IMG/VR virus record: IMGVR_UViG_3300041809_000337
Coordinates: 1-50,961 of that record
Direction: 5' to 3' (one strand)
Source of the DNA: a virus
Lineage: Duplodnaviria; Caudoviricetes
DNA: 50,961 nt
The translations under genes and the position numbers were made by a program. The notes beneath the pieces were generated by a model, which did no database searches, had not been told where the DNA came from, and was given only the letters and a program-made list of their open reading frames with translations. Of this stretch, positions 27,820 through 30,305 are shown in pieces (within the stretch, counting starts at the first letter, position 1; each line of letters starts with the position of its first letter).

Positions 27820-28110
27820 ATGGCATCACAGAGACCTACCTGGCCAGACATCCTCGACCCAGCTTTCCGTAAGATTTACGGTGACGAAATTCGTCAGTTG
27901 CAACAGCAAGTATTCTCTATCTTTAATGTCGACACCTCGGTGAAAAACATTGAAAAGGATTCGAGTGCTACTGGTTTGTCACGCTTGGTTCAAACGAGTG
28001 AGTCTGCGCCTATAACATACGAAGATGAAGTTGAAGGGTACAACGTTATATATACCCACCTAAAGTTTGCTAAGGGTACTTCGGTGTCTCAGGAACTTTG
28101 GGAAGATGAT
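27820..28110 (+). CDS. Major capsid protein exon 1 (Mu gpT-like HK97 fold)
   Basis: E...ITY, YTH.KFAKG..VS.ELWEDD; ends at the predicted 5' splice site. Confidence 0.85.
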
Positions 28111-28739
28111 TTTGTAACACTGGTCATCGATAAACTGAAAATGATAAAGGGAACGCTAAAGCAATTAAAGCAATTTGCCACGCCAACCCTTAGCAAGCAG
28201 GGATTAACAATTTGAATAAGAAGCACTTGAAGCAGCGAGCATATCTGGCTGGCTTCGTTGACGGGGAAGGTTGCATAACCATTGTCCGTTCAGCAGGTCA
28301 AGCGAGATGTAAAATCGGCTACTCAATACGTGTAGATGTCGGCCAAAAGGACGGCAAACTGATGGACTTACTATATGGACTCTACAACGGCCACGTTTGT
28401 CAAGAGTTAAAAGATGGTAAGTTCGCCCATTACCGTTGGACGGTATACGGCAAATCAGCCTACAAAATTTTACACGACATTGAGCCTTTCTTGATTATCA
28501 AGAGAGAACAAGCTCGGCTCGCTATGGAATTCTTTGACCGTTCATTAAAACGGCGAGAGGATTCCGGCAGATATAGTCTGACTCCAGAAGTTATCGAACG
28601 TAATGATAGCGACTGGAGTAAGATTCGAAAGCTTCATAAAATATACAGTCAATCCCATGCAGCTGCAGAGACTAAGTTTTTCAGCGCTCCAAAGAGCGAA
28701 GCGATAGTCCACCCTTAGATGAAAGTCTAGGATAAGGTA
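28111..28739 (+). mobile_element. Group I intron in the major capsid gene
   Basis: IGS ACTGGTCATC pairs with exon GATGAT via terminal U-G; R element GCAGAGACTAA and S element GAAGCGATAGTCC form P7; P8 CGCTC/GAGCG; P9 TAGA-TGAAAG-TCTA. Confidence 0.9.
28212..28718 (+). CDS. Intron-encoded single-motif LAGLIDADG homing endonuclease
   Basis: YLAGFVDGEGCI, V.QKD, PFLIIKREQA. Confidence 0.95.
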   Translation: MNKKHLKQRAYLAGFVDGEGCITIVRSAGQARCKIGYSIRVDVGQKDGKLMDLLYGLYNGHVCQELKDGKFAHYRWTVYGKSAYKILHDIEPFLIIKREQARLAMEFFDRSLKRREDSGRYSLTPEVIERNDSDWSKIRKLHKIYSQSHAAAETKFFSAPKSEAIVHP

Positions 28740-29381
28740 CAGTTTGGCGTGATGAGGAGAAAGCCCCAAAACCTCGCCAATGCTAAGATTCGGACAATTG
28801 AGCAATTCGGTGCTGATATTCTCAACAACGGATTTACCGCCGGTGGTGGCGGTTCAGCGCCTTTTACAGGCCCTGACTCAGTAGCGTTGTTCTATAATGC
28901 CCACCCTCGTGAAGACGGTGGTTCCACACAGAGCAACTACATCACCGCTGACCTGAGTGAAGATTCGATTGAAAACGGACTCGTTACTATGCGAGCTACT
29001 CTCGATGGTAAAGGTCAGCTCATGTTAGTTAACCCCCAGACATTACTAGTTCCGCCAGCCTTGGAAAAGGAAGCTAGAATCCTAATGGATTCCATGCAGC
29101 GGACTGGTACGACTAACAACGATATCAACCCCTATAAGGGTCGGCTCGAAGTTAAAGTTTGGGATTACTTGGGTTCCGTAGCCGGTGGTTCGGATACAGC
29201 TTGGTTCATTTATGATAAGGCTGTTTCAGAACTTAACTGGTTTAACCGCTCAGATTTAGGTCTGCAAGGCCCCGATTGGGATTTCGATACTACTACCGCA
29301 AGGTGGAAAGTCGTTTGCCGTTGGAGTGCCGGTTGGTCAAACTGGCGGGGGTGGTATGGTAGCCTAGGTACTAACGCTTAA
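28740..29381 (+). CDS. Major capsid protein exon 2 (spliced product about 310 aa)
   Basis: GPD.VALF..AHP, P.TLLVPPALE, NDINP, TAWF, GWSNWRG.YGS. Confidence 0.85.
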   Translation, partial: QFGVMRRKPQNLANAKIRTIEQFGADILNNGFTAGGGGSAPFTGPDSVALFYNAHPREDGGSTQSNYITADLSEDSIENGLVTMRATLDGKGQLMLVNPQTLLVPPALEKEARILMDSMQRTGTTNNDINPYKGRLEVKVWDYLGSVAGGSDTAWFIYDKAVSELNWFNRSDLGLQGPDWDFDTTTARWKVVCRWSAGWSNWRGWYGSLGTNA

Positions 29382-29444: not shown

Positions 29445-30305
29445 ATGGCAATTGGAGATAAAACATACCCCTGGGCGATGCATACTGCTTGGGGCTTAAG
29501 TGTACCGCAGGTCTTGAAAGATGTAATTGAGACCACTGGTGGTTACACTAATAATAAGAAAATGGTTTCAGCAGGTACGGCAGCGGCAGTTTTAGCTTCA
29601 ACGGCTGGTGCGGCAACAAAACAAACTATTACGGCGGGTATTACCAACCCAGACGTACCAAGAGTTCTAGCCATCACAATTGGTGGTTCTGGATATTCTT
29701 CTGACAGTATTCTTATCAACGGCGTAAACGTTGAAGGTAAACCGATTACCGATACAATAGCTTATACGGCTAATGCCCAGGTAATTGGTTCGTTGGTATT
29801 TAAACGAGTTACTTCTATAGTCATCCCAAGTACATCAGGTACTTCGATGACACTTACGGTGGATACTACGAACCGCATCGGCCTTGACCACCGTCTAGTC
29901 CCTAATTACTCGACTATCGCTTGTCTGTCGGCCACGCTGACAACAGCTTACACCGACCACACCACAACAGCTTTCCATACTAACTTCCCGATTGTGGAAG
30001 CAGCCGTTTCGGCTTCTAACATTGACGGTGAGTTCGTGGAAAAGAACTGGGCGCAGCCAGCCACCGCACCTAACGGAACCACTTACCTGATATTCTTCTA
30101 CTGGTTCTACAAAGTTCTGGTCTATCCGCCAAAGGATTCGCCGGAGTTCTACTCGACGACTACTTCAACAAGTTCATCGACTTCTTCGACGAGTACTTCA
30201 AGTACTTCAACCAGTGCAAGTACGTCTGTCAGTTCAACTTCAGTTTCGACTACAAGTATCTCAACATCAAGTACATCAACTTCGACAACCACGTTGCCGG
30301 TATAA
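29445..30305 (+). CDS. Virion structural protein with C-terminal Ser/Thr tract
   Basis: ITNPDVPR.L.IT, FK.VTSI motifs; ~47-aa S/T tail at 30153-30293. Confidence 0.75.
   Translation: MAIGDKTYPWAMHTAWGLSVPQVLKDVIETTGGYTNNKKMVSAGTAAAVLASTAGAATKQTITAGITNPDVPRVLAITIGGSGYSSDSILINGVNVEGKPITDTIAYTANAQVIGSLVFKRVTSIVIPSTSGTSMTLTVDTTNRIGLDHRLVPNYSTIACLSATLTTAYTDHTTTAFHTNFPIVEAAVSASNIDGEFVEKNWAQPATAPNGTTYLIFFYWFYKVLVYPPKDSPEFYSTTTSTSSSTSSTSTSSTSTSASTSVSSTSVSTTSISTSSTSTSTTTLPV

Follow-up and report, generated by a model that had tools for sequence, protein, structure and literature searches.

Can a group I intron that does not end in guanosine be removed correctly from a phage transcript? This question is raised by the IMG/VR virus record IMGVR_UViG_3300041809_000337 (Duplodnaviria; Caudoviricetes), the whole of which, 50,961 bases with a completeness estimate of 98%, was analysed and is called the window here. 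On its plus strand, a gene assigned by homology to the Mu gpT-like (HK97-fold) major capsid proteins is interrupted by a 629 nt insert whose last nucleotide is A28739. A guanosine at this position (omega-G) is near-universal in group I introns, yet its absence is not used to exclude an RNA from the family. The junction U28110|C28740 was fixed by two independent lines of evidence, the alignment of protein homologues and the joints found in assembled RNA. The insert is very probably a mobile group I intron with a LAGLIDADG endonuclease gene, located between codons 97 and 98 of the capsid gene and cut at this junction.

The split capsid gene

The open reading frame (ORF) that starts at position 27820 reads to ...SQELWEDD, after which a stop is reached at 28213-28215. 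A second ORF, 28749-29381, lies in a different frame and matched the capsid families PF25209 (41.9 bits against a cut-off of 27, E = 1.9e-10) and PF10124 (33.3 bits against a cut-off of 20.1, E = 4.2e-8), as well as PHROG 371, which is annotated as "major head protein". Both Pfam cut-offs were passed and full-length relatives were found; by these sequence comparisons the split gene is that of the major capsid protein. The final codons of exon 1 are GAA GAT GAT, ending at 28110, and CAG TTT GGC GTG ATG opens exon 2 at 28740. The 97 and 213 codons of the two exons add up to 310, equal to the length of most of the homologues (310 amino acids).

Capsid RNA joined across the insert

Parts of the stretch were present in 20 public runs from 17 studies, dated 2017-2025, seven of which were RNA libraries; the runs were labelled as wetland, peat, pond or soil metagenomes, or in some cases simply as "metagenome". 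Three metatranscriptomes (X5, X6 and X7) and one independent DNA run (X2) were compared with the window in detail, all as contigs. One contig each from X5 and X7, which belong to different studies, joined position 28110 to position 28740 and skipped the 629 bases between them. The skipped segment has the ends TT..TA and no base at the joint fits both sides, hence the position of the joint is unambiguous. The joined contig from X7 (1003 nt) showed no differences from the window over 27820-28110 and 28740-29131 (291 and 392 exon bases). Unspliced RNA-library contigs also were found, one in X5 across the 5' junction (28081-28540) and one in X6 across the 3' junction (28507-29060), the latter with A28739 kept. 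The DNA contig from X2 (27820-29366) was unbroken and included the insert. The joined form was therefore found in two of the three RNA runs and in none of the one DNA run compared, and neither 28743 nor 28738 was reported as a joined position in the contigs of these four runs. Excision of the insert and ligation of the exons are precise at the RNA level, at U28110|C28740.

The joined molecules could also have come from an isogenic phage variant that has no intron, either as its DNA or as its mRNA, and splicing at a terminal A would then be unproven. Such a variant would fit with the use of contigs, with the fact that RNA libraries can contain DNA and with the coverage in X7 of the exons but not of the intron; it is at odds with the restriction of the joint to RNA runs in this comparison, and with the presence in X5 of an unspliced contig of the same sequence. 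Furthermore, over 683 exon bases the X7 contig did not differ from the window, whereas the closest intron-less homologue had 91% protein identity over exon 2 (among the matches listed) and the closest complete IMG/VR locus had 93%. Intron-bearing DNA was recurrent, with shares of 0.80-1.00 in four DNA runs from four studies (2017-2025), and because the capsid gene is essential the interrupted gene must be expressed somehow. An intron-less variant as the source of both joined contigs is considered improbable.

A predicted group I core in the insert

The helices of the insert were drawn by hand, and every pair was then checked by script (Table 1). The starting point was a sub-threshold Rfam alignment, used purely as a pointer to P7-P9, which places AGACUAA and AUAGUC as P7 and a GAAA hairpin as P9. 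The resulting model contains the P3-P8 and P4-P6 domains, the P3/P7 pseudoknot, a bulged P7 with its G-C pair, and J8/7, which are features of a group I core; P5 is unsettled. J1/3 would be GAUAAA, with no P2, and J6/7 would be GCA. P7 had been described as canonical when the sequence was read on its own, and the checked pairs bear out that description. The pair G28670-C28709 occupies the position of this function in the Tetrahymena core and presumably is the guanosine-binding pair. A28739 itself is placed between the 3 bp P9.0 on its 5' side and the 4 bp P10 on its 3' side.

It is highly improbable that the insert is some other type of self-removing element. The Rfam model Intron_gpI remained below threshold for this insert and for its relatives, and the last base is not G, as might be expected of some other element; the model nevertheless combines a splice-site U-G pair, a single guide for P1 and P10, the P3/P7 pseudoknot, an AGACUAA...AUAGUC P7 with a bulged A, a 6 nt J8/7 and a peripheral loop that houses the LAGLIDADG ORF. 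An intein was ruled out, because the reading frame closes at 28213-28215. Group II introns have the ends GUGYG...AY; these ends are absent from the insert, which also has no reverse transcriptase ORF.

The splice junction and the terminal A

Exon 2 had 537 matches at E ≤ 1e-10 in a large protein collection. The best 120 of the 537 were aligned with the joined two-exon translation, a check that the sequence-only reading of this locus had proposed, and 118 of the 120 include the N-terminal part. All 118 of these full-length homologues aligned without a gap or an insertion over a stretch of 12 residues that spans the junction. DD is followed by Q in 109 of them, by E in six, by L in two and by A in one; F follows it in none. 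Relatives of 310 amino acids reached 91% identity over exon 2, among the matches listed. When IMG/VR was searched with exon 2, 29 loci were found to encode a relative; 28 contain both exons, the insert was present in none of these 28, and exon 1 directly abuts exon 2 in 26. Eleven close loci all read WEDD|QFGVMRRK, with GAYGAY|CARTTYGG as the DNA sequence.

Two other capsid homologues, P0001 and P0008, are 209 amino acids in length, do not have the N-terminal part and are 93% and 86% identical, respectively, over exon 2. Their ORFs begin at the same Met as the exon-2 ORF of the window, which is after the 3' splice site, and this arrangement makes it probable that both genes have an interruption at that same site. 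GenBank phages gave no DNA match to the window, and their capsid or endonuclease proteins were only 23-38% identical.

The guide ACUGGUCAUC (28119-28128) pairs without a break with GAUGAU (28105-28110) and with CAGU (28740-28743), P1 ending in the U28110-G28123 wobble at the 5' splice site and P10 continuing P1 on a single 10 nt guide. The sequence-only reading had proposed this pairing, together with an in-frame EDD-QFGVM product and A28739 as the last intron base. All of the proposed pairs were found, and both the exon codons and the RNA joints agree with that frame and that base. Its statement that G-ending alternatives lose the adjacent P10 also held: contiguous pairing extended over 10 positions (6+4) for the A-ending junction, compared to 7 (6+1), 7 (7+0), 6 and 4 for the alternatives. 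When the first 30 intron bases were shuffled 200,000 times against the fixed junction, 10 contiguous pairs together with the splice-site U-G pair arose in 552 cases. When the junction was left free, chance yielded runs of 10-16 pairs, so the guide alone is insufficient to settle the junction. It is settled by the homologue alignment and the RNA joints.

An intron ending in a normal G (G28742, G28737 or G28736) would leave the capsid protein one residue different at the junction. G residues do occur both before and after A28739 at a distance of no more than 3 nt, the GGUACAG found there is similar to the GUAACAG tail of some relatives, and a splice from U28113 to U28743, a G-ending option that the sequence-only reading had not listed, would keep the length of the protein and read EDD-F-FG. 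A G-ending intron is extremely unlikely all the same, given that 28110 to 28740 was the sole joint reported, that guide pairing is reduced for every such site and that at this point a gap, an insertion or an F is absent from all 118 homologues. The products EDD-FG, EDD-LQFG, EDD-VQFG and EDD-F-FG were all excluded by the alignment of homologues and IMG/VR loci, because the homologues are ungapped and the close ones read WEDD|QFGVM.

That a G was turned into A28739 by faulty assembly or sequencing would be the first thing to suspect of one unusual base, but no support for it was found, and its probability is close to nil: the contigs of X2 (DNA) and X6, which are separate assemblies, both keep the A. 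The X2 contig differed from the window at three positions (28978, 28983 and 29243), none of them 28739, and the X6 contig shared the first two of these differences. The window and at least one slightly different, independently assembled strain both have A28739, making three independent assemblies.

The endonuclease gene and other features of the locus

The coordinates of the exons, the intron and the elements of the model are collected in Table 1.

Table 1. Coordinates in the window of the capsid exons, the putative intron and its predicted structural elements
Feature	Position	Strand	Remarks
Major capsid gene, exon 1	27820..28110	+	97 codons, ends ...ELWEDD; upstream piece of RNA contigs stops at 28110
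Major capsid gene, exon 2	28740..29381	+	QFGVMRRKP..., 213 codons and stop; from Pfam and homologues
Putative group I intron	28111..28739	+	629 nt, starts UUUGUAAC, ends GGUA; skipped exactly in X5 and X7 RNA contigs
Omega position, last intron nucleotide A	28739	+	joint 28110 to 28740; same letter in X2 and X6
P1 and internal guide	28105..28128	+	28105-28110 with 28123-28128; guide 28119-28128
P10, 5' strand ACUG	28119..28122	+	pairs with CAGU 28740-28743, the first four bases of exon 2
P3, 5' strand CUGAAAA	28135..28141	+	pairs with 28678-28684 (UUUUCAG)
P4	28147..28191	+	28147-28151 with 28187-28191; encloses P5 region
P6	28192..28664	+	28192-28205 with 28651-28664; AA/A internal loop, bulged A28657
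P7	28668..28710	+	G28668-C28710, bulged A28669, G28670-C28709 to A28674-U28705; encloses P3' and P8
P8	28685-28689 with 28694-28698	+	loop CAAA
J8/7, AAGCGA	within 28668..28710	+	6 nt; hand model
P9 hairpin	28714-28731	+	28714-28720 with 28725-28731, 7 bp, GAAA loop
P9.0	28711..28738	+	J7/9 ACC (28711-28713) with GGU (28736-28738), 3 bp, around P9
LAGLIDADG homing-endonuclease ORF	28212..28718	+	168 amino acids, UUG start, single motif; Pfam PF00961, PHROG 5046

The translation of the endonuclease ORF carries YLAGFVDGEG (a single LAGFVDGEG motif) and matched PF00961 (LAGLIDADG_1) with 26.6 bits (cut-off 23.1, E = 1.1e-5) and PHROG 5046 with E = 5.4e-24. A homodimer is expected because the protein has one motif and 168 residues. 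Most of the ORF sits in the P6 loop, and its 3' end overlaps P6', P7, P3', P8, P7' and the beginning of P9. The UUG start is located 8 nt downstream of AGGGA (28199-28203), the sole Shine-Dalgarno-like stretch, which lies in one strand of P6. As AGGGA is part of P6 in the model, an RNA folded as a ribozyme may be unable to serve for endonuclease translation, and vice versa.

Directly after the capsid gene, the ORF at 29445-30305 (286 amino acids) encodes a tail of approximately 45 residues, nearly all of which are Ser or Thr (STSSSTSSTSTSS...).

Related introns

A search of JGI metagenomes with the endonuclease protein gave one locus, L032, at 34% identity; the same protein found no relative in IMG/VR. 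Scanning IMG/VR with the P7/J8-7 core returned 33 loci (L033-L065) that have the same P7 motif, none of which lies in the capsid gene of the window and none of which has its ACCC J7/9. Bacterial and archaeal genomes yielded nothing, either by core motif or by protein. The 33 loci, the window and L032 together comprise 27 unique sequences. L032 and L033-L065 represent at least 26 unique phage introns with the core AGAGACUAAGU...AUAGUCC(G)ACC and the J3/4 UGAU(UGAC), often with the tail AGUAACA.

In 24 of the 27 sequences, an upstream 7-mer pairs at six or seven of its seven positions (G-U allowed) with the bases after GACUAAGU and is then followed by a UGAU-like J3/4. The sequence of this helix varies from member to member, and the alignment thus lends covariation support to the predicted P3. 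Covariation in P4 and P6 was taken from six members that have no ORF: P4 was read by eye from the alignment as CUUG/CAGG, CAUG/CAUG and CUUG/CAAG, and the base of P6 was read from alignments as GGC/GCC, CGC/GCG and GCG/CGC, compared to AGC/GCU in the window.

The L032 intron, which has its endonuclease gene in P6, interrupts a different major head gene (PHROG 9953); the guide GUUCUGUCCGC of this intron forms pairs with GCGGAU|GGAAC. The last position of exon 1 in the PHROG 9953 profile is 138, and exon 2 begins at position 139; because these positions are contiguous, the junction is taken to be right. The last base of the intron is G, and the GU immediately before it is able to pair with the AC of J7/9. 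For nine further relatives, the guide-compatible site that was chosen, by eye and unverified, ends in G at 4-6 nt after a conserved GUAACA. These sites hint weakly at G as the family norm for the last base. An automatic search for splice sites in the relatives, based on guide pairing and open frames, was noisy; as a control, the true junction of the window was outside the top four in one list and third in the other. For L056, the longest guide pairing points to a site after C.

Many relatives conserve the hexamer GUAACA at 4-6 nt upstream of their inferred 3' splice site; it was noted at 28114-28119 of the window and in the tails of L033-L065, and the 3' tail of the window (AUAAGGUA) does not contain it. 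GGUACAG near the 3' site of the window resembles the GUAACAG tail of some of these relatives. Most relatives bear extra hairpins after P9, which the window does not have. The closest structural relatives, with a J3/4-P4 of the UGAUAAGGGG type and an ORF in P6, are L032 (308-1026), L053/L065 and L061, which are located in a different major head gene. Their second exons open with GGAAC, a G-T- reading being seen for L032 and L053. The UGAUAAGGGG-type subclass seems to favour capsid genes.

Strength of the assignment and proposed mechanism

Several findings weigh against the assignment of the insert as a correctly spliced group I intron with a terminal A. The evidence for splicing consists of two assembled contigs, not raw reads, from libraries of a type that can hold DNA; the joined contig from X5 has only 30 nt on its short side, and the check for the joined form in DNA covers the single run X2. 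Rfam gave no match to the window at the gathering score. In E-value mode, Intron_gpI (RF00028) aligned to 28482-28731 with 13.2 bits (E = 1.8), compared to a threshold of 50 bits; six related-intron loci gave no gathering hits and the 200 nt intron of L034 gave none at E ≤ 1. P5 could not be drawn convincingly in the hand model, and the last base is A28739 in place of omega-G. The group I label is a modelled one, derived from helices drawn by hand together with the P7/J8-7 motif and with covariation that was in part read by eye, and P0001 and P0008, the two probable intron-bearing relatives, are represented by their protein ORFs. The presumed guanosine-binding pair is the same as in the G-ending relatives, and the pocket shows no compensating change; nearby, a difference was noticed only in J7/9, which is ACC(C) in the window versus GACC in most relatives. 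In Tetrahymena, a G414A mutant with an unchanged G264-C311 pocket is reportedly impaired in its second splicing step, and its rescue is said to have required a change of the binding pair to A-U. By this biochemistry, an A combined with an unchanged pocket should give a poor second step.

The failure of Rfam probably is explained by the 445 nt insert in P6 and by an unusual family, which seems to fall outside the coverage of the Intron_gpI model. It reflects a limit of that model, not a defining property of the RNA.

The general group I mechanism, with a terminal G, is described in PMC3984707. For the intron of the window, free guanosine would attack at the U-G pair of P1 in the usual way, and the freed exon 1 would then attack the bond that follows A28739. 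In this second step A28739, instead of a G, would occupy or pass through the unaltered pocket formed by G28670-C28709. Because an A should bind a G-C pocket poorly, P9.0 and P10 would carry the alignment of the 3' site and keep A28739 in register. Exon ligation would probably be slower than with a G, and side reactions for which a terminal G is needed, namely hydrolysis of the 3' splice site and formation of full-length circles, would be suppressed.

It is a tentative and rather doubtful proposition that the terminal A is a selected feature in a very highly expressed late gene and not a tolerated defect. If it were selected, side reactions that waste capsid mRNA would be abolished, the 3' site would be chosen purely by P9.0 and P10, and the intron would be a small natural ribozyme that carries out the second step without guanosine recognition. 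Ligation might then depend on a helper, such as the LAGLIDADG protein acting as a maturase, and with such a helper the production of capsid would be tied to expression of the intron gene. It also is possible that the intron throttles capsid synthesis, as the sequence-only reading had suggested.

Comparison with known systems

Phage capsid genes are known to contain introns. In phages, core genes, among them the major capsid gene, are interrupted by group I introns that carry endonuclease ORFs, and such introns include those in capsid genes of crAss-like phages (PMC7886860); the insert in the window resembles these in being a mobile group I intron in a capsid gene. It differs in its last nucleotide: the descriptions of phage introns in the available text of PMC7886860 and PMC3984707 assume or state a terminal G and do not refer to any phage intron with A at its end. 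The portion of PMC6669764 that was available contained nothing on a capsid intron. No phage or bacterial case of a terminal A was found in the literature searched, a search that did not extend to the Greek-letter spelling of the term or to supplements, so that a published case may have been missed. With this limit, the window provides the first case known to us of RNA-level evidence, from natural samples, for a correctly spliced phage intron with a terminal A.

L032 and the 33 IMG/VR loci share the core motifs and J3/4 with the window, and L032 ends in G. The Tetrahymena G414A and G264-C311 variants are laboratory mutants, reportedly rescued through an A-U pair, whereas in the window the pair stays G-C and the spliced product is natural. 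A compact A-ending phage intron with an ordinary G pocket is a natural test case for a second step without guanosine recognition. It is also a possible source of ribozymes with less hydrolysis at the 3' site, which is relevant to designs for RNA circularisation and trans-splicing.

A terminal G has been called "universally conserved" (PMC8146996), and intron-mapping software scores it (bioRxiv 10.1101/2020.01.27.920355). The intron of the window is a warning to annotation pipelines that require a terminal G, and the joints found here indicate that public metatranscriptomes are able to settle the splice junctions of uncultured phages.

The terminal A itself is already known from hexacoral mitochondria, in which the group I intron ND5-717 of sea anemones and mushroom corals ends in A (PMC8146996). 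In Stichodactyla haddoni this intron is precisely spliced despite its terminal A, as judged from RNA-seq junction reads, and the authors propose that the A prevents hydrolysis at the 3' site and circularisation (PMC8146996). By analogy, the same reactions could be blocked in the intron of the window. ND5-717 and the intron of the window are alike in being natural group I introns that have A as the last nucleotide and are still precisely spliced (PMC8146996). They differ in their setting. ND5-717 is described as a mitochondrial intron that is obligatory, is inherited vertically and has no homing endonuclease; it carries the ND1 and ND3 genes in P8 and undergoes back-splicing in some species (PMC6545197). 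The intron of the window, in contrast, is found in a phage, carries a LAGLIDADG gene in P6, interrupts a late structural gene and is absent from all of the relatives that could be retrieved.

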